Below, one piece after another: positions 8,341 to 20,879 of a DNA stretch of 44,005 nt. The translations under genes were made by a program, and so were the position numbers. Position 1 is the stretch's first letter; each line of letters starts with the position of its first letter. This DNA comes from Vectrevirus T205P4. The stretch lies in the sequence record OZ035727.1; one strand, written 5' to 3'. Below the pieces are notes generated by a model. It was not told where the DNA came from. It searched no databases and saw only the letters and a program-made list of their open reading frames with translations.

Positions 8341-8700
8341 GTACCTTAGGTTATTACTTGATGGATAGCTTAGGTTATAGCTTAGTGGCCTACCTTAGTT
8401 ATAACCTTAGTGCATAGCTTAGTATCAGCTTAGTAGTGTACCTTAGTAAGTCTTAGTGTCTTCTCTTAGTGATTGCACATGCAAGCATGTAAGATGCCAT
8501 TAGGTCGCGGTCGGTAGACCGCTAAAGAAGGAGAATAGTAATAAGATGCAGTAGGAGGAACACCAGAAACCTAGCCAACCTAGCCTATCCTAGCTCTGTA
8601 TCTATTGCTTTTCCTTAGTCTCACACGTTAGACAACCTAGGTTTGTCTTAGTAGTTGCGACATGTATCACATAAATAATCTATCTTAGTGCGATTTAGTG
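8340..8700. repeat. Array of short CTTAGT/CTTAGG motifs (more than 15 copies) in the terminal non-coding region
   Basis: Motif recurs at irregular 10-25 nt spacing (e.g. agcttaggttatagcttagtggcctaccttagttataaccttagtg...); analogous to the CCTAAAG repeats near the T7 left end. Confidence 0.6.
8618..8633. repeat. Degenerate copy of the 16-bp palindrome (GTCTCACACGTTAGAC, 1 mismatch)
   Basis: One substitution relative to the GTCTCACACGTGAGAC family. Confidence 0.4.
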
Positions 8701-11467: not shown

Positions 11468-14095
11468 ATGCAAGACTTACACGCTATTCAACTTCAACTT
11501 GAAGAAGAAATGTTTAACGGCGGTATCCGTCGCTTTGAAGCGGACCAACAACGCCAGATTGCATCCGGTAATGAATCAGACACGGCATGGAATCGCCGCT
11601 TATTGTCTGAGTTAATCGCGCCAATGGCTGAAGGCATTCAGGCATACAAGGAAGAGTATGAAGGTAAAAGAGGCCGTGCACCGCGTGCATTGGCTTTCAT
11701 TAACTGCGTTGAAAACGAAGTGGCAGCATATATCACGATGAAAATCGTTATGGACATGCTGAATACAGACGTTACCTTACAAGCCATCGCTATGAATGTA
11801 GCAGACCGCATCGAGGACCAAGTACGTTTTAGCAAGCTGGAAGGTCACGCCGCCAAATACTTTGAGAAAGTTAAGAAGTCACTTAAGGCAAGTAAGACTA
11901 AATCATATCGCCATGCGCACAACGTAGCGGTCGTGGCTGAGAAGTCTGTATCTGACCGTGACGCGGACTTTTCCCGCTGGGAGGCATGGCCCAAAGATAC
12001 CTTGTTGCAAATAGGTATGACACTGCTAGAAATCTTGGAGAATAGCGTATTCTTTAACGGGCAACCTGTTTTCCTCCGCACCTTGCGCACTAATGGCGGC
12101 AAACACGGTGTTTACTACTTACAGACCAGCGAACACGTTGGCGAGTGGATAACTGCATTTAAGGAACATGTAGCGCAGCTTAGTCCTGCCTATGCGCCTT
12201 GCGTCATCCCTCCGCGTCCGTGGGTGTCGCCTTTTAATGGTGGATTCCACACTGAGAAGGTAGCAAGTCGTATCCGTCTTGTTAAAGGCAACCGCGAGCA
12301 CGTACGCAAGCTCACTAAGAAGCAAATGCCAGCCGTTTACAAGGCTGTTAATGCTTTGCAGGCAACTAAATGGCAGGTTAACAAGGAAGTATTGCAGGTT
12401 GTTGAAGATGTAATTCGTCTCGACCTTGGTTATGGTGTGCCTTCCTTTAAGCCGCTTATCGACCGCGAGAACAAGCCAGCTAATCCAGTGCCGTTAGAGT
12501 TCCAGCACCTGCGAGGCCGTGAACTTAAAGAGATGCTAACGCCGGAACAATGGCAAGCCTTCATCAACTGGAAAGGCGAATGTACCAAGCTGTATACCGC
12601 TGAAACTAAGCGCGGCAGCAAGTCGGCGGCAACCGTTCGCATGGTCGGGCAGGCCCGTAAATACAGCCAGTTTGACGCAATATACTTCGTGTATGCACTG
12701 GATAGCCGTTCGCGCGTTTATGCGCAATCTAGCACGCTCTCGCCGCAATCAAACGACCTAGGCAAGGCGTTACTGCGTTTCACCGAAGGGCAGCCTCTAA
12801 ATAGCTCTGAGGCGCTTAAGTGGTTTTTGGTGAACGGGGCGAATAACTGGGGTTGGGATAAGAAAACCTTTAACGTGCGCACCGCTAACGTGCTGGATGG
12901 TGAATTCCAAGACATGTGCCGCGACATTGCAGCCGACCCGCTGACCTTCACTCAATGGGTGAATGCAGATTCACCTTATGGCTTTCTTGCGTGGTGCTTT
13001 GAATACGCGCGTTATCTGGATGCACTGGATGAAGGAACACAAGATAAATTCATGACGCATTTACCAGTACATCAAGATGGTAGTTGTTCTGGTATCCAGC
13101 ACTATAGCGCGATGTTACGCGATGAAGTAGGTGCGAAAGCGGTAAACCTCAAGCCGTCAGACGAGCCGCAAGATATTTATGGGGCCGTTGCGCAAGTAGT
13201 TATCCAGAAAAACTATGCTTACATGAATGCAGATGATGCAGAAACTTTCACATCTGGAAGCGTAACACTTACAGGTGCAGAACTGCGTAGCATGGCTGGC
13301 GCGTGGGATATGATAGGTATCACTCGCGGCTTAACCAAAAAGCCGGTAATGACCTTGCCTTACGGCTCCACCCGCTTAACCTGCCGTGAGTCAGTGATTG
13401 ATTATATCGTTGATTTGGAAGAAAAAGAGGCACAACGAGCTATTGCAGAAGGGCGGACGGCGAATCCTGTTCACCCTTTTGATAATGACCGCAAAGATTA
13501 CCTGACACCGGGCGCAGCTTACAACTATATGACTGCTTTAATTTGGCCTTCTATCTCTGAGGTTGTTAAAGCTCCTATAGTGGCGATGAAAATGATTCGC
13601 CAGCTTGCACGATTCGCAGCTAAAAGAAACGAAGGGCTAGAGTACACCTTACCTACTGGTTTCATCTTGCAACAAAAGATAATGGCTACCGACATGCTAC
13701 GCGTATCCACTTGCTTGATGGGTGAAATCAAGATGAGTCTACAGATTGAGACTGATGTAGTGGATGAAACGGCAATGATGGGCGCTGCCGCTCCTAACTT
13801 TGTTCACGGGCATGATGCTAGTCATCTCATCCTGACTGTATGTGACCTCGTTGACAAGGGCATTACATCTATCGCAGTCATCCATGATTCCTTTGGTACT
13901 CATGCAGGCCGTACAGCAGACCTGCGGGATAGCTTAAGGGCAGAAATGGTGAAGATGTATCAAGGTCGTAATGCTCTGCAAAGCCTGTTAGATGAGCATG
14001 AGGAGCGCTGGTTAGTAGACACCGGAATCCAAGTGCCAGAGCAAGGGGAGTTTGACCTTAACGAGATATTAGTATCTGACTATTGCTTTGCATAA
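11468..14095 (+). CDS. Single-subunit DNA-dependent RNA polymerase, SP6-type, 875 aa
   Basis: N-terminus [32 protein letters not shown]... and C-terminus ...[10 protein letters not shown]...DYCFA match my recollection of SP6 RNAP; conserved catalytic region [18 protein letters not shown]. Confidence 0.97.
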
Positions 14096-14167: not shown

Positions 14168-14183
14168 GTCTCACACGTGAGAC
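14168..14183. repeat. 16-bp palindrome GTCTCACACGTGAGAC, copy 1
   Basis: Perfect inverted repeat, 2 nt upstream of promoter P3. Confidence 0.8.
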
Positions 14184-14430: not shown

Positions 14431-14559
14431 ATGCGTAACTTTGAGAAGATGACCCGTAAAGCTAATCGTTTTGACATGGAAGAAGGGCAGAAGAAAGGCA
14501 AGAAGCTGAACAAACCTGTCCGCGACCGTGCATCTAAACGCGCTGCGTGGGAGTTCTAA
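14431..14559 (+). CDS. T7 gp1.1-like small basic protein, 42 aa (MRNFEKMTRKANRFDMEEGQKKGKKLNKPVRDRASKRAAWEF)
   Basis: GGAGA RBS; same length and same MRNFEKMT... start as I recall for T7 gp1.1; below track cutoff. Confidence 0.65.
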   Translation: MRNFEKMTRKANRFDMEEGQKKGKKLNKPVRDRASKRAAWEF

Positions 14560-14562
14560 GTT

Positions 14563-16551
14563 ATGGCTATTATTCAGAATGTACCGTGTCCTGCCTGTCA
14601 AAAGAATGGACATGATGTTACCGGCAACCATCTCATGATCTTTGATGATGGTGCTGGCTATTGCAACCGTGGTCACTTCCACGATAACGGAAAGCCATAC
14701 TACCATAAGCCCGAAGGTGGCATCGAGATAACCGAGTTGCCTATTACTGGCAATATCAAATATACACCTTCTCAGTTCAAAGAGATGGAGAAGGAAGGGA
14801 AGATAAGCGACCCTAAGCTACGCGCCATCGCACTTGGTGGTATGCGTATGAAAGACCGTTGGGAGGTTATGAATGAGCAAGAAAGGGCAGACCAAGAAGC
14901 AGAGTGGAAACTTGATGTTGAATGGTTCCTCACGCTTAAGCGTAAGAACCTTGTATCCCGACACATTCGCGGCGACATCGCAGCACTATATGATGTGCGA
15001 GTGGGCCATGATGAAGAAGGAAGAGTCAATCGTCACTACTACCCCCGCTTCGAGAAAGGTGAGCTAGTAGGCGCTAAGTGCCGTACCTTACCTAAAGACT
15101 TTAAGTTTGGTCATTTAGGTAAACTATTTGGTATGCAAGATCTTTTCGGTATGAATACTTTGTCTCACGTGTTAGACAAGGGAAGACGAAAGGATTGCTT
15201 GCTTATCGTAGGCGGCGAACTTGATGCACTAGCAGCCCAGCAGATGCTTCTTGATTCCGCCAAGGGCACTAAGTGGGAAGGACAACCATATCATGTGTGG
15301 TCTGTCAACAAGGGTGAGTCTTGCCTTGAAGAGATAGTGCAGAACCGTGAACATATCGCTCAATTCAAGAAGATTATATGGGGCTTTGATGGGGATGAGG
15401 TTGGGCAGAAGCAGAACCAACAAGCGGCTCGCCTGTTTCCTGGTAAATCCTATATCCTTGAGTATCCTTCTGGGTGTAAAGATGCTAACAAGGCATTGAT
15501 GGCTGGCAAGGCTAAAGAATTTGTGGATGCTTGGTTTAATGCCAAGTCATCTGATGAAGTCTTTGGTAGCCAGATTAAATCTATCGCATCTCAAAGGGAT
15601 AAGCTCAAGGCTGCACGTCCCGAGCAAGGATTGTCATGGCCTTGGCCTAAGCTGAACAAGGTAACGCTAGGTATTCGTAAGAACCAGCTTATCATTGTAG
15701 GTGCAGGGTCTGGTGTAGGTAAGACTGAGTTCCTTCGTGAAGTAGTTAAGCACCTCATTGAAGAACACGGTGAATCTGTAGGCATCATTTCTACAGAAGA
15801 CCCGATGGTCAAGGTGTCCCGTGCTTTTATCGGCAAGTGGATTGATAAGCGTATTGAGTTACCGCCAACCAACGACCCGAAAGAAGATGGATACCGTGAG
15901 GTGTTCGACTACACCGAGGAAGAAGCTAACGCCGCCATTGATTATGTAGCTGATACAGGTAAGCTGTTTGTAGCTGACCTAGAGGGTGACTATTCGATGG
16001 AAAAGGTAGAGCAAACTTGCCTAGAGTTTGAGGCTATGGGCATTTCTAATATCATCATTGATAACTTAACGGGGATTAAATTAGATGAGCGTGCTTTTGG
16101 TGGGAAGGTTGGTGCACTTGATGAATGCGTCAAGCGGATTGGTACTATCAAAGACCGACACCCGGTTACTATATTCCTTGTATCACACCTTACACGTCCT
16201 CCGGCAAACCGTACCCAACACGAAGAAGGTGGCGAAGTTATCCTTTCTGACTTCCGAGGCTCAGGAGCTATCGGATTCTGGGCATCTTACGCCTTGGGGA
16301 TTGAGCGTAATACAAGAGCTGAAACGCTTGACGAAAGGACTACCACGTACATCTCATGTGTCAAAGACCGCGACCAAGGTATCTGGACTGGAACCAAGGT
16401 CATGCTTAAGGGTGACATTCAAACCGGACGTTTAATGGAACCACAAGCCCGTACTAAGTCATTTGATACAGGTGAAGCAAGGCAACAAGAAGTACCAGAT
16501 TTACCGGACACTATAGAAGAGACTAACTTCGATGAAGAAAGTGAGTTCTGA
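14563..16551 (+). CDS. DNA primase/helicase (T7 gp4-like), 662 aa
   Basis: N-terminal Cys4 zinc ribbon (CPACQKNGHD...CNRGH), helicase Walker A GAGSGVGKT, acidic C-terminus ...FDEESEF ending in Phe as in T7 gp4. Confidence 0.93.
   Translation: MAIIQNVPCPACQKNGHDVTGNHLMIFDDGAGYCNRGHFHDNGKPYYHKPEGGIEITELPITGNIKYTPSQFKEMEKEGKISDPKLRAIALGGMRMKDRWEVMNEQERADQEAEWKLDVEWFLTLKRKNLVSRHIRGDIAALYDVRVGHDEEGRVNRHYYPRFEKGELVGAKCRTLPKDFKFGHLGKLFGMQDLFGMNTLSHVLDKGRRKDCLLIVGGELDALAAQQMLLDSAKGTKWEGQPYHVWSVNKGESCLEEIVQNREHIAQFKKIIWGFDGDEVGQKQNQQAARLFPGKSYILEYPSGCKDANKALMAGKAKEFVDAWFNAKSSDEVFGSQIKSIASQRDKLKAARPEQGLSWPWPKLNKVTLGIRKNQLIIVGAGSGVGKTEFLREVVKHLIEEHGESVGIISTEDPMVKVSRAFIGKWIDKRIELPPTNDPKEDGYREVFDYTEEEANAAIDYVADTGKLFVADLEGDYSMEKVEQTCLEFEAMGISNIIIDNLTGIKLDERAFGGKVGALDECVKRIGTIKDRHPVTIFLVSHLTRPPANRTQHEEGGEVILSDFRGSGAIGFWASYALGIERNTRAETLDERTTTYISCVKDRDQGIWTGTKVMLKGDIQTGRLMEPQARTKSFDTGEARQQEVPDLPDTIEETNFDEESEF
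16498..16521 (+). promoter_or_regulatory. Phage RNAP promoter P5 (GATTTACCGGACACTATAGAAGAG), inside the 3' end of the primase/helicase gene
   Basis: Perfect consensus copy about 30 nt before the helicase stop codon. Confidence 0.7.
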
Positions 16552-16572: not shown

Positions 16573-16588
16573 GTCTCACATGTGAGAC
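16573..16588. repeat. 16-bp palindrome GTCTCACATGTGAGAC, copy 3 (extended GCTTGTCTCACATGTGAGACAGG)
   Basis: Lies 22 nt after the helicase stop; extended flank identical to the copy at 39653. Confidence 0.8.
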
Positions 16589-16627
16589 AGGCTCTTATTA
16601 AGTACATTAAATAACTGGAGATTGATT

Positions 16628-17311
16628 ATGTATAAATTAGTATTGAATGCAGGTGATTATGTTCGTAACATCAATGAAGCCTCACGTCGTTATCATTGCC
16701 GTGGTGTAGTGGCTCGTGTAAGTGAGAACATGTATCATGTAGAGTATGAGGATGGTATTAAGGCTTCTTACCACAAGAAAACAGCACATAAATATCTTGA
16801 AAAGATTGTAGAGATAAACAATCAATGTAAGTGCATACATGATGAGGTTTGCGATAAATGTGCTCGCCAGATGCTTAAGAATTTCCTAGCTCCTCTTTAT
16901 TATGGTGCTGGCCCTCAAACACTAGCAGAGTACATGGCAGAAAAGAAAACCACAATTAAGAAAGAGCGCCGCAATGTAATCACTGGTAAGACTCAAAGTG
17001 AAATGATTAAACTATGTGGCACTGCATTAGGTGTTACGCAGTTTAACACTCGTGCTCTTGGTAAATCCACAGGACAAGCTATGGTGAAAATTGGTGAAGC
17101 TATGATGCATCCAAATGTACCTGTACGAATCATGGATGTTGACCATGCAATCACAGAGCATGGCACACCACGGCGTGTAGCTAATAATCATTTTGCCGAC
17201 ACTATAGAAGGTATTATTCGTAAGCAAGAGTTGAAGGGTCTTCACATCTTAAATGGTGAAGAATTACTGTACCTACCTATCGTTACTGAAGAAACATACG
17301 TGAATATCTAA
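16628..17311 (+). CDS. Hypothetical protein, about 227 aa, with Cys cluster (CKCIHDEVCDKC)
   Basis: GGAGA RBS before ATG at 16628; no recognisable catalytic motif. Confidence 0.65.
   Translation: MYKLVLNAGDYVRNINEASRRYHCRGVVARVSENMYHVEYEDGIKASYHKKTAHKYLEKIVEINNQCKCIHDEVCDKCARQMLKNFLAPLYYGAGPQTLAEYMAEKKTTIKKERRNVITGKTQSEMIKLCGTALGVTQFNTRALGKSTGQAMVKIGEAMMHPNVPVRIMDVDHAITEHGTPRRVANNHFADTIEGIIRKQELKGLHILNGEELLYLPIVTEETYVNI
17189..17212 (+). promoter_or_regulatory. Possible weak phage promoter (CATTTTGCCGACACTATAGAAGGT) internal to the 16628 gene
   Basis: Core GACACTATAGAAGG conserved, upstream half deviates at 3 positions. Confidence 0.35.
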
Positions 17312-17321
17312 GGAGTTAATC

Positions 17322-17540
17322 ATGACTAAGGTATTAATTTATATGCGTGGACCTCATAAATGCTATGCAGTTGTAGCACCAAATGGTGTTAAGCCCTATA
17401 GAACTTCAAAAAGATTGGCATTAGTAGGTGCTAGTAGTAGTGCAAGTTTCCAAATGGAACTTTTTGGTCATTGGACTGAACGGCAATTCCGTGAGGATTT
17501 TAAAGTCATTGGCAGCTTCATGGTGAAATATGCAGAATAA
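17322..17540 (+). CDS. Hypothetical protein, 72 aa
   Basis: AGGAG RBS before ATG. Confidence 0.5.
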   Translation: MTKVLIYMRGPHKCYAVVAPNGVKPYRTSKRLALVGASSSASFQMELFGHWTERQFREDFKVIGSFMVKYAE

Positions 17541-17739
17541 ACATAGTCTTAAAATGTTCGATGGTCATGAAGACCTGCAAGCCAAGATTACTAACCAAGC
17601 CTTCCTGTTCGCACAGGTAACTATGGCTGAAGCAAAGAAGAATAGCCTGACGCGTGAACAGGTTATCAAGGAGGCAACTTGGGAGCCACACCAAGGTAAA
17701 TACATGGGCCAGAAATTAACGGTAACACGCAGTCGATAA
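17530..17739 (+). CDS. Hypothetical protein, 69 aa (start uncertain)
   Basis: Overlaps previous stop; alternative ATG at 17554. Confidence 0.45.
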   Translation: MQNKHSLKMFDGHEDLQAKITNQAFLFAQVTMAEAKKNSLTREQVIKEATWEPHQGKYMGQKLTVTRSR

Positions 17740-17749
17740 GTCAAGGGTT

Positions 17750-17765
17750 GTCTCACACGTGAGAC
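17750..17765. repeat. 16-bp palindrome GTCTCACACGTGAGAC, copy 4
   Basis: Perfect palindrome 11 nt after the 17530 ORF stop. Confidence 0.8.
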
Positions 17766-17796
17766 AGCCTTTCATCATATTGATTGGAGGTGCATT

Positions 17797-17904
17797 ATGC
17801 CACGTGATTATGATTCTGATTGGGATTTCCAAGATTCAATGCAACCTAAACCAGAAAGGAGGGAGGATGAGTTCGAAACAGATCAAATGTATGAGGATTT
17901 TTAC
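17797..17904 (+). CDS. Hypothetical acidic micro-protein, 35 aa (MPRDYDSDWDFQDSMQPKPERREDEFETDQMYEDFY)
   Basis: TTGGAGG RBS 6 nt upstream; overlaps the HNH gene start; could instead be untranslated leader. Confidence 0.3.
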
Positions 17905-18346
17905 TAACTACATCCTCTATTCCGACGGTCGTATCTTTAGTGATAAGAAGAAGAGATACCTAACAGGTACTCTTGATAGCTACGGTTACCGTCAAGTTAA
18001 ACTTAATGGAGACTTATACCTCTTACACAGGTTAGTTGCATTATATTTCATTCCTAATCCCGATAACTTACCTGAAGTTGATCACGTAGATTTTAACCGA
18101 GACAATAATTGTGTATCTAATCTACGGTGGGTTTCCAGAAGAACCAACCTAGAGCATAGCAAGGTAAGACGCTGTACTGCACAGGCTAAGTTTTATAACT
18201 TCGTAGACCCTGACGGTAATATTGTTACAGTGTATGGTCTATCTTCTTTCTGCAAAGAGAATGGACTAAGCCAAGCAGCGATGCACCATGTGTGGTCTGG
18301 TAATAGAAATCATCACAAAGGTTGGACTAAATATGTTGAATGTTGA
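17867..18346 (+). CDS. Free-standing HNH homing endonuclease, about 160 aa
   Basis: GYRQVKL...LHRLVALYFIPNP...VDHVDFNRDNN...NLRWV...N pattern typical of phage HNH endonucleases; AGGAGGGAGG RBS before ATG at 17867. Confidence 0.85.
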   Translation: MSSKQIKCMRIFTNYILYSDGRIFSDKKKRYLTGTLDSYGYRQVKLNGDLYLLHRLVALYFIPNPDNLPEVDHVDFNRDNNCVSNLRWVSRRTNLEHSKVRRCTAQAKFYNFVDPDGNIVTVYGLSSFCKENGLSQAAMHHVWSGNRNHHKGWTKYVEC

Positions 18347-20879
18347 TTGGAAAGAATACGGTAAAAACCGGATCCTAGTTATGGACGCCGAAGCAAAAGG
18401 CTTGCTTGATGCCATACGCTATGGTCATCGTGAAGATGTGCACATCATTTGCTGCATGGATTTACTCACCACTGAGGAGTTCCTATTCTTCGACCCATAT
18501 GAGATGCGTGACCCTGAGGCAAGGGAACGCCTGAAGGAGTGGGAAGGCCATCAAGACGGAACCTTGGTTGATGGTGTTAACTTCCTAAAGCACTGTGAAG
18601 CCATCGTCTCACAGAACTTCCTAGGCTATGACGGGCTTCTCTTTGAGAAAGCCTTCCCTGACATCTGGAAAGGATTTAACTACACCGAGAGGCGCGGCAA
18701 TGGCAGACTACGTGCTGACCTGTGTCCGGTACGCGTCATGGATACGCTGGTCATGAGTCGCCTGTTAAACCCAGATAGACGCCTTCCTCCGCAAGCATAT
18801 GCCAAAGGCATGGGTAACGTCGCCCCTCACTCAATTGAGGCGCACGGCATCCGTATAGGCCGCTATAAACCAGAGAACGAGGACTGGTCTAAACTAACTG
18901 ACCACATGGTTCACCGTGTACGTGAAGACGTGGCAATTGGTCGTGACCTTTTCCTATGGCTTTACAACGGAGAGTGGACGGAGCACAAACGCCGTGGCGT
19001 GAATAAACGTACTGGCCTAGGTATTGAGACAGCCTTCCACATGGAGTCCATTGTGGCGCTGGAGATGAGCCGTCAGGCCGAGCGCGGGTTCCGTCTGGAC
19101 ATCGACAAGGCTTTGGCCCGATGCGAAGAATTGGACGCTAAAATTGACGAGACAGTCGCAGCGTTCCGCCCTCACATGCCTATGCGTATCAAGTCTAAAC
19201 CTTTTAAACCGGAAGAAAAGAATGAAGTATGCCAACGCGCAAATGAGTATGGAGCTAGCAACAATATACCTACTGTCCTTGACCCCTCACACTTTCTTCA
19301 TGCCGAGAGACGAGGAGATCGCAAGACAGTATGGAGTGTCACTACTAAGTCTGGTGATTGGTCGGCTAGTGTCAAGAAAGACTTCCCTCACCTTAGAGGA
19401 AACCGTAATGACACGCCAAGCATCAAGTGGATTGGCGCTTACTCGCCTGTTACTTTCGAAGAGATTCCCTTGGGTAACAGGGATACAGTTAAGCAAGTGC
19501 TCTATGATTATGGATGGAAAGGTGTTGAATTTAACGATACCGAGCAAGCTCATCTCGATGAGCACGGAGTGTTACCCAAACCTTGGAGTGGTAAGATAAA
19601 TGAAAAGTCCCTTACTTTATGGCAAGAAAGAGCCGCACGTGAAGGTAAAACAGTCCCTGATTGGTGCTTGGGTATCGCTGCATGGTACATACTCGTATCC
19701 CGTCGTGGTCAGATACTCAACCGTGGTGACGTTGAAGCCTTCAACGAGAAGGGAACGTGGCCCTCGCAGGCTGGTGTACGAAAGTGTCGCGGCCTTGTAC
19801 CGGTAGCATTCAACAAGGAGCTAGGAATCAATGCGCAGCAATACTACGAGAGGTACGGATATTGGCCTACGTCTGACAAAGATGACGGAGAGTGGCGTGT
19901 TCCAGCTGTTGCTATTAGTATTGGCACTTCTACGTTCCGTATGCGTCATCGTAACGTGGTTAATATTCCTGCCCGTGGCTTGTATCCTTTACGTGATTTA
20001 TTCATAGCAGGGAAAGGCAAGCTAATCCTTGGTTGTGACGGTGCAGGTCTTGAACTGCGTGTCCTGTCTCACTTCATGAATGACCCTGAGTACCAAGAGA
20101 TTGTACTGCACGGTGATATTCATACGCATAACCAGATGAAGGCTGGTCTTCCTAAGCGTGATATGGCGAAGACGTTTATATACGCCTTCCTCTATGGCTC
20201 TGGTATAGCCAACCTTGCAGCAGTATGTGGTGTTACTGAGGAGGAAATGAAGGAAGTTGTGGCAAGATTCGAGATTGAACTGCCGTCTCTTGCACGTCTT
20301 CGTGAGAATGTTATCGCACAAGGTAACAAGTTTGGCTACCTGCAAGCACCTGATGGGCATTGGGGTCGCATCCGCATGTCTGGTGGTGAACTTAAAGAGC
20401 ACACGATGCTTAACGTATTACTCCAGATGACTGGCTCTTTGTGTATGAAATATGCATTAGTAAAGGCATTTGCAGTAATGCGCAAGGAAGGTGTAGCCTT
20501 GGATGCTATGGGAAATCCTTGTGGTGTGGCTAACGTGCATGATGAAATCCAGATGGAAGTTCCTGAAGAGGAGGTCTTGTATCTTAACTACGACCTACCT
20601 TTCACCTTAGATGGGTTCGAAACAGAGAAGGCTGCCGTGAAAGCAGTGTTCGATGCAGAGGAGAAACGTGTTCATGTGGATTCTGAAGGACGTATGTGGT
20701 CTGCTGCAAACCTCGTCAGTGTTGATGCTGATGCTGGTGTATTGCATTGCCAGCGCCGTTATCACCGTGCAGGGCATATCATTGCCGACGCCATGACTTG
20801 GGCTGGTCAGTATCTGAAGATGCGTTGCCCGATGGCAGGAGAATATAAGATTGGCACAAGTTGGAAGGAAACACACTGA
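18333..20879 (+). CDS. DNA polymerase, family A (T7 gp5-like), about 848 aa
   Basis: N-terminal 3'-5' exonuclease motif (VMDAEAKGL), long polymerase domain, size close to SP6-type DNAP; start at ATG 18333 (MLNVDWKEYG). Confidence 0.95.
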   Translation: MLNVDWKEYGKNRILVMDAEAKGLLDAIRYGHREDVHIICCMDLLTTEEFLFFDPYEMRDPEARERLKEWEGHQDGTLVDGVNFLKHCEAIVSQNFLGYDGLLFEKAFPDIWKGFNYTERRGNGRLRADLCPVRVMDTLVMSRLLNPDRRLPPQAYAKGMGNVAPHSIEAHGIRIGRYKPENEDWSKLTDHMVHRVREDVAIGRDLFLWLYNGEWTEHKRRGVNKRTGLGIETAFHMESIVALEMSRQAERGFRLDIDKALARCEELDAKIDETVAAFRPHMPMRIKSKPFKPEEKNEVCQRANEYGASNNIPTVLDPSHFLHAERRGDRKTVWSVTTKSGDWSASVKKDFPHLRGNRNDTPSIKWIGAYSPVTFEEIPLGNRDTVKQVLYDYGWKGVEFNDTEQAHLDEHGVLPKPWSGKINEKSLTLWQERAAREGKTVPDWCLGIAAWYILVSRRGQILNRGDVEAFNEKGTWPSQAGVRKCRGLVPVAFNKELGINAQQYYERYGYWPTSDKDDGEWRVPAVAISIGTSTFRMRHRNVVNIPARGLYPLRDLFIAGKGKLILGCDGAGLELRVLSHFMNDPEYQEIVLHGDIHTHNQMKAGLPKRDMAKTFIYAFLYGSGIANLAAVCGVTEEEMKEVVARFEIELPSLARLRENVIAQGNKFGYLQAPDGHWGRIRMSGGELKEHTMLNVLLQMTGSLCMKYALVKAFAVMRKEGVALDAMGNPCGVANVHDEIQMEVPEEEVLYLNYDLPFTLDGFETEKAAVKAVFDAEEKRVHVDSEGRMWSAANLVSVDADAGVLHCQRRYHRAGHIIADAMTWAGQYLKMRCPMAGEYKIGTSWKETH

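Follow-up and report, generated by a model that had tools for sequence, protein, structure and literature searches.

At the start of the DNA polymerase gene of Vectrevirus T205P4 (OZ035727.1) we found an HNH endonuclease gene that, judged by sequence comparison, is free-standing and most probably an I-HmuI-type homing endonuclease gene, whose homing site in Vectrevirus would be the junction between gp11.5 and the polymerase. The window, by which we mean the whole stretch of 44,005 nt that was analysed, was approx. 93–95% identical in nucleotides over 22 kb to Vectrevirus phages (K1E/K1-5-like; Autographiviridae, Molineuxvirinae), and no closer relative was present in the phage collection. The features of the locus are the following.

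11468-14095: RNA polymerase
14563-16551: primase/helicase
16622-17311, 17322-17540 and 17530-17739: three conserved small genes, equivalents of K1E gp10, gp10.5 and gp11
17746-17771, + strand: conserved hairpin ggttGTCTCACACGTGAGACagcc between gp11 and gp11.5
17797-17907, + strand: gp11.5-like acidic ORF of 36 aa (PHROG 15473, alignments, K1E gp11.5 annotation)
17830-17919, + strand: left cassette end (3' third of gp11.5 in recoded form, ribosome-binding site (RBS) and ATG of the HNH gene, first approx. 18 HNH codons)
17867-18346, + strand: I-HmuI-like HNH endonuclease gene, 159 aa plus stop (Pfam, PHROG, 1U3E, AF2/Foldseek, dN/dS)
17920-18303, + strand: variable HNH body
18333-18346, + strand: overlap of 14 nt between the HNH 3' end and the new polymerase start, ATGTTGAATGTTGA
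18333-20879, + strand: DNA polymerase, family A, 848 aa (PF00476 on the homologue in L007; annotations)
18351-18371, + strand: polymerase codons 7-13, AAAGAATACGGTAAAAACCGG, KEYGKNR, candidate immunity variant of the homing target

An HNH reading frame of 160 aa had been described here in an earlier note made from the sequence alone. The gene is real: it runs from ATG 17867 to a TGA ending at 18346, with aaGGAGGgagg directly before the start codon, and its product has 159 aa. A GTG start at 17759, giving an ORF of 195 aa, was rejected because ATG 17867 and its RBS were conserved in four diverged alleles. The protein matched Pfam HNH_3 (PF13392) over residues 51-94 with 34.1 bits against a curated cut-off of 24.8 (E 2.2e-8) and PHROG 59, 'HNH endonuclease', at 6e-31; the matches of its N- and C-termini to NUMOD4 and to the I-HmuI NUMOD-like Pfam entries were sub-threshold. 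Using phmmer, residues 14-154 were aligned with residues 12-167 of the 174 in I-HmuI (PDB 1U3E) at an E of 3e-16. In this alignment D72, H73, N85 and N94 correspond to D74, H75, N87 and N96 of I-HmuI, to which Shen and colleagues in 2004 reportedly assigned the roles of catalytic His and metal-binding Asn/Asp, and H73, N85 and N94 were invariant in 12 homologues. An AlphaFold (AF2) model built from 12 homologues reached a pLDDT of 88, and in a Foldseek search with this model I-HmuI (1u3e) was the only significant PDB match (E 7.7e-12, 161 columns). The layout comprised an N-terminal, NUMOD4-like beta-sheet, an HNH core at approx. residues 51-97 and a C-terminal region resembling a helix-turn-helix. 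We concluded that the protein is, by its sequence and predicted fold, a full-length I-HmuI homologue of the HNH_3-NUMOD4 kind with the predicted catalytic residues in place.

The gene is an ORF of its own, with gp11.5 on one side and the undivided 848-aa polymerase on the other. An Rfam scan of the whole window detected no family and no group I intron, and we therefore regard the gene as free-standing. A tblastn search of the window for paralogues of the HNH protein returned only the protein itself. The placement between helicase and polymerase given in the earlier note needs correction, since the primase/helicase ends at 16551 and the three small genes plus gp11.5 intervene before the HNH gene. 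The insertion point is the polymerase start codon, and the flanking genes are gp11.5 and the polymerase. No phage promoter of the type ATTTACYGGACACTATAG lies directly before the HNH gene or anywhere between 17207 and 21411, the closest strong ones being those at 16499 and 21411. Signals of its own, either a promoter or a terminator, were likewise considered for the HNH gene and rejected, as sigma-70-like matches were at chance level and no terminator was found. Judging from these promoter-like sequences, the HNH gene is probably read together with the DNA-metabolism genes, between the phage promoters at 16499 and 21411.

A search of the window for the SP6/K1-5-type promoter ATTTACYGGACACTATAG with up to 3 mismatches gave 12 matches, all on the + strand, where 0.06 were expected (positions 121, 2226, 3888, 14186, 14383, 16499, 17190, 21411, 22180, 23326, 26438 and 31471). 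The match at 17190 was weak, with 3 mismatches.

The HNH gene was sporadic among the relatives. Matches to the flanks were found in 83 phage records, none of which covered 80% of the region, and by tblastn approx. 11 of these 83 related Vectrevirus records had an HNH gene at the junction. When the junction spans were compared in the best 40 of the 83 records, 6 contained an HNH gene, 19 contained K1E gp12 and 15 were empty. K1-5, K1E and SP6 had no HNH gene at the junction, K1-5 and SP6 being empty. The presence/absence comparison that the earlier note had proposed thus revealed a patchy occurrence, not a gene universally present at this site. Four alleles were distinguished. The one shared by Sem1-4 and ULINTec4 was 56% identical in amino acids to the HNH protein of the window, the one shared by LL11, T147P9, LI10P5 and ULINTec7 was 52% identical, and the one at the junction of Klebsiella phage vB_KpnP_ZK1, counted as the fourth, was 69% identical. 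The allele of the window itself was absent from the GenBank phage records; it was found, in the same architecture and with 97-99% amino acid identity, in ENA/Logan metagenome contigs and in one IMG/VR genome. In a neighbour-joining tree of polymerase nt 150-1700 the HNH, gp12 and empty states were interspersed. The closest polymerases to that of the window belonged to a phage in the gp12 state (96.7%) and to LL11, which has another HNH allele (96.5%), whereas carriers of the same allele reached only 94%.

K1E gp12 is an unrelated gene of 72 aa at exactly the same insertion point (L003 2092-2310; also in L013, L014, L016, L021 and L022). It contains a CxC...CxxC motif, matches PHROG 12821, a family of unknown function, and appears to be the commonest state among the best 40 records. 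Its last codons, YEIN*, are common to the HNH gene of L007. The idea that gp12 is a decayed endonuclease found no support, as gp12 had no Pfam match and its PHROG is one of unknown function.

Comparison of the alleles with their surroundings points to movement of the gene. Between the window and the metagenomic contig L007 the nucleotide identity was approx. 98% over 17830-18333, and over the adjoining 60 nt on each side it dropped to 70-73% on the left, where L007 is LL11-like, and to 50-73% on the right, where L007 is K1E-like. The reverse was seen for LL11 and Sem2, in which the flanks, the first approx. 90 nt and the last approx. 30 nt of the cassette were 76-100% identical to the window and the body at 17920-18303 was approx. 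50% identical. This same body was 96-100% identical in nucleotides to the alleles of L007 and L011. Conserved ends around a diverged body suggest that alleles were exchanged within the conserved cassette ends. The earlier description of a selfish mobile gene that varies between near relatives is borne out by the patchy presence and by the same allele lying between different flank alleles, so far as the compared sequences can tell. The breakpoints in identity at the cassette edges could also have arisen by ordinary recombination and not by endonuclease-driven conversion, which is conceivable because these phages are generally mosaic, and the HNH-bearing loci are few (four alleles) and phylogenetically not independent of their flanks. 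All alleles were full length with pairwise dN/dS values of 0.1-0.35, and the HNH protein is therefore maintained by purifying selection. Purifying selection of a 'selfish' gene would also agree with its being of use to the phage.

In Sem2 (L006) the 5' part of the polymerase gene, nt ~1-420 (window 18334-18750), was divided: the first approx. 400 nt were 53-76% identical to the window and the sequence downstream was 93-100% identical. This looks like a long tract that was co-converted together with an HNH allele from a more distant donor.

The acidic ORF before the HNH gene, put at 35 aa in the earlier note, is present and acidic, although its length is 36 aa (17797-17907). It has 13 Asp/Glu against 4 Arg/Lys and a GGAGG RBS, matches PHROG 15473 (E 1.3e-18) and is a homologue of K1E gp11.5. 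Its last 41 nt overlap the 5' end of the HNH gene in another frame. HNH-less relatives such as K1E and LF31P3 also have gp11.5 with its RBS, and so does ZK1, a diverged Klebsiella phage. We concluded that the small ORF is a conserved host gene and no companion of the endonuclease; only its 3' third lies in the cassette. In HNH-less phages gp11.5 ends 14 nt inside the polymerase gene, reading ATG TAT GAA GAT TGT TGA where the polymerase frame reads ATG AAG ATT GTT GAT TGG.

K1-5 has a different ORF of 50 aa at the position of gp11.5 (L041 1619-1771). It is unrelated to gp11.5 over most of its length and shares with it the C-terminal ...ELMYEDY*; like gp11.5, it overlaps the polymerase by 14 nt. 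What precedes the polymerase start is thus replaceable itself.

The anatomy of the cassette was derived from alignments of HNH-bearing, K1E-type and empty junctions. It spans from about 17830 to about 18371. On the left, positions 17830-17919 were approx. 100% identical to LL11 and Sem2, unlike all HNH-less genomes. Here the 3' third of gp11.5 is recoded from GAACGTTCAGATGAYTAY to GAAAGGAGGGAGGATGAGTTC, which makes the RBS (AAAGGAGGGAGG) and the ATG of the HNH gene and leaves gp11.5 acidic (...PERREDEFETDQMYEDFY). The ancestral polymerase ATG has become HNH codon 9 (ATG AGG ATT at 17891), and the right boundary of the insertion is the conserved GATTGG of polymerase codons 5-6. Within the final 14 nt of the HNH gene, the right end of the cassette supplies the polymerase with a replacement start codon and its first four codons. 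The new ATG is built from TAT, the codon of the invariant Tyr156, plus G. An overlap of about 14 nt had been estimated before; with the polymerase ATG at 18333 (MLNVDWKEYGKN...) it covers 18333-18346 and is exactly 14 nt.

Beyond this boundary we identified a short segment that may be connected with the target. In all 18 HNH-less loci, including SP6 with 79% polymerase identity, polymerase nt 19-39 read AAGAAGGARGCRGAAGGNCGT, coding for KKEAEGR, with 0-5 mismatches to the consensus (median 2). Five of the six HNH-bearing loci had 11, 12, 13, 8 and 6 mismatches in this segment, the 11 being those of the window (AAAGAATACGGTAAAAACCGG), and the neighbouring 21-nt bins of the HNH-bearing loci were at background with 1-4 mismatches. 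The version of codons 7-13 differed by allele (KEYGKN/KEHSKN, KEFGKN, KEAAKG, KKAGQG). We hypothesise that such localised, allele-specific rewriting would be the expected look of self-protection in the carrier of a homing endonuclease. The exception was L007, which has the same HNH allele as the window and only 2 mismatches in nt 19-39; as this is almost the HNH-less type, it weakens the proposed immunity segment, unless the two changes or the insertion itself protect. A likely candidate for the recognition site is polymerase codons 5-13 of HNH-less genomes, GATTGG AAGAAGGARGCRGAAGGNCGT.

From these observations we propose how the element would spread. When the carrier and an HNH-less relative infect the same cell, the enzyme would bind the conserved gp11.5/polymerase junction and probably nick one strand, as I-HmuI does, the candidate position of the nick or cut in HNH-less DNA lying within or near GATTGGAAGAAGGARGCRGAAGG. 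The damage would be repaired by the recombination system of the phage with the HNH-bearing genome as template. By this repair the HNH gene, together with markers of the gp11.5 3' end and the polymerase 5' end, would be copied into the recipient, amounting to homing, co-conversion and marker exclusion. The carrier itself would escape such damage, as its junction is split by the insertion and its codons 7-13 are rewritten. The nicking, repair and co-conversion steps are suggested because I-HmuI-type enzymes and free-standing phage homing endonucleases behave in this way. In the literature we found no experimental work on HNH genes at the polymerase junction of Vectrevirus or SP6-like phages.

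The cassette also changes how the polymerase is started, and this bears on an explanation different from active homing. According to it, the gene descends from a homing ancestor, no longer homes, and persists because translation of the polymerase depends on it. In the HNH-bearing genomes the polymerase ATG is preceded by cAAAGGttggactaaat, a weak RBS motif at a distance of 10 nt; the corresponding sequence is GGAGGaaatgt or aGAGGcaatgt in empty genomes and tGGAGcaatct in gp12 genomes, with good spacing in all. In the cassette, the ancestral polymerase ATG has lost its good motif (GAGGCA to GATCAA), and the 14-nt overlap was kept in all four alleles. As the polymerase starts within the final 14 nt of the HNH gene and has only a weak RBS, loss or truncation of the HNH gene would be costly. 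The same allele nevertheless occurs on different flanks, the catalytic residues are intact and under purifying selection, and the altered polymerase codons 7-13 would fit an active enzyme. We therefore consider such a domesticated state improbable.

The overlap is no property of the whole family. A family-wide rule, by which a 14-nt overlap takes over the start codon of the host gene, was rejected on the basis of six more distant members with annotated overlaps of 20, 10, 13, 4, 1 and none. It holds only at the polymerase site of Vectrevirus and for a second HNH gene at the primase/helicase start in L007-L009.

Still less probable, in our estimate, is that the diverged alleles are primarily weapons between phages, each preferentially cutting the polymerase 5' region of phages with another or no allele and thereby excluding the flanking markers. 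It would agree with the presence of four alleles (52-69% amino acid identity) at one site in phages that are approx. 94% identical elsewhere, and each allele is linked to its own version of codons 7-13, while the HNH body seems to have been swapped between conserved ends. I-HmuI and I-HmuII are known to cut both intron-plus and intron-less heterologous DNA (PMC3428280). The allele-specific flanks could, however, be hitch-hiking co-conversion tracts from different donors, and a weapon function overlaps with the homing explanation and does not replace it. An extended version, modelled on I-HmuI and I-HmuII between SPO1 and SP82, combines weapon and immunity in one allelic system: four alleles would each be paired with their own codons 7-13, new specificities would arise when the body is swapped between the ends, and the dependence of polymerase translation would make the cassette hard to lose. 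We regard this combined system as unlikely.

It is very improbable that the HNH protein is not mobile and serves the phage in replication, recombination or packaging: its gene, situated in the DNA-metabolism block, seems to share a transcript with the polymerase and shows purifying selection, but most close relatives replicate without it, and the protein belongs to the I-HmuI/NUMOD4 homing family and not to the terminase-associated HNH group, with no packaging genes nearby. Terminase-associated HNH proteins occur in HK97-like phages. All three alternatives, persistence through polymerase translation, weapons and a phage function, are less likely than homing.

Free-standing HNH homing endonuclease genes beside essential replication genes are common in lytic phages. 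Homing as the preferred explanation agrees with several described systems. Enzymes of the I-HmuI type nick DNA site-specifically and occur in association with phage polymerase genes (PMC3428280). I-HmuI (SPO1), I-HmuII, I-BasI, I-TwoI and I-PfoP3I share the family, the domain order and the association with a polymerase gene with the HNH gene of the window; they differ in that their genes lie within group I introns interrupting the middle of the polymerase gene, whereas the gene of the window is free-standing at the polymerase start and its product has only approx. 30% identity to them. Free-standing HNH genes of T4-like phages (mobE and other mob genes) are sporadic and are mobilised with flanking DNA, and for mobE homing was experimentally shown (PMC2790892, PMC2988022). 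They too stand free by essential DNA-metabolism genes, but they belong to another phage group and another HNH subfamily. Clustering of homing endonuclease genes next to essential genes and at the borders of recombination has further been described (Barth, Dunham and Seed 2023, PMC10448857). The HNH gene of the window likewise lies at the start of an essential gene and coincides with identity breakpoints between related phages; that study concerns ICP1, the T5orf172/IPA-HNH families and large islands, in contrast to the single cassette of approx. 0.5 kb seen here.

The nearest known counterparts are the HNH genes already annotated at the same junction in ZK1, in the Escherichia phages LL11, ULINTec4, ULINTec7 and vB_Eco_Sem1-3, in Klebsiella phage vB_Ka_Sem4 and in Vectrevirus T147P9 and LI10P5. 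These follow gp11.5, overlap the polymerase by 14 nt, code for 157-167 aa and have the same cassette ends, but their products are only 52-69% identical to that of the window. The gene of the window is thus a new allele of an element that is already annotated, which would not surprise a specialist and mostly changes nothing. What is added are the cassette boundaries to within a few bases, the separation of the small ORF from the element and a candidate target at polymerase codons 5-13. K1-specific Vectreviruses are components of cocktails for phage therapy. Where related phages are mixed, recombination and the inheritance of markers could be biased by an active endonuclease.

Further HNH genes were observed at other positions. 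L007, L008 and L009, metagenomic relatives with the same HNH allele as the window, contain, at 399-887, the second HNH gene, which codes for 162 aa with NUMOD4 and HNH_3 and is 38% identical. This gene is placed on the primase/helicase start codon and again extends 14 nt into the host gene with its new start; the corresponding junction of the window, at 14559-14566, is uninterrupted. More distant paralogues with 31-36% identity were found in L021 (5044-5457), L031 (5031-5384), L025 (5166-5489) and L032 (1640-2086). The matches in L021 and L031 begin about where the polymerase gene of approx. 2.55 kb should end, and the one in L032 lies upstream of a gp11 homologue. Because of these paralogues at other positions, we concluded that there are several HNH insertion sites in the genomes of these phages.

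The hairpin at 17746-17771 was also present in HNH-less relatives and is therefore a host feature, not a part of the element. It is one of a set: the palindromic hairpin motif GTCTCACRYGTGAGAC had 8 copies in the window where 0.05 were expected by chance, with 16-nt cores at 8618, 14168, 14362, 15162, 16573, 17750, 23295 and 39653, and these hairpins matched no Rfam family. The copies at 14168, 14362 and 23295 are followed, after 2-15 nt, by phage promoter-like sequences, and those at 16573, 17750 and 39653 have extended stems and are intergenic. The hairpins could be signals for RNA processing or for termination or pausing.
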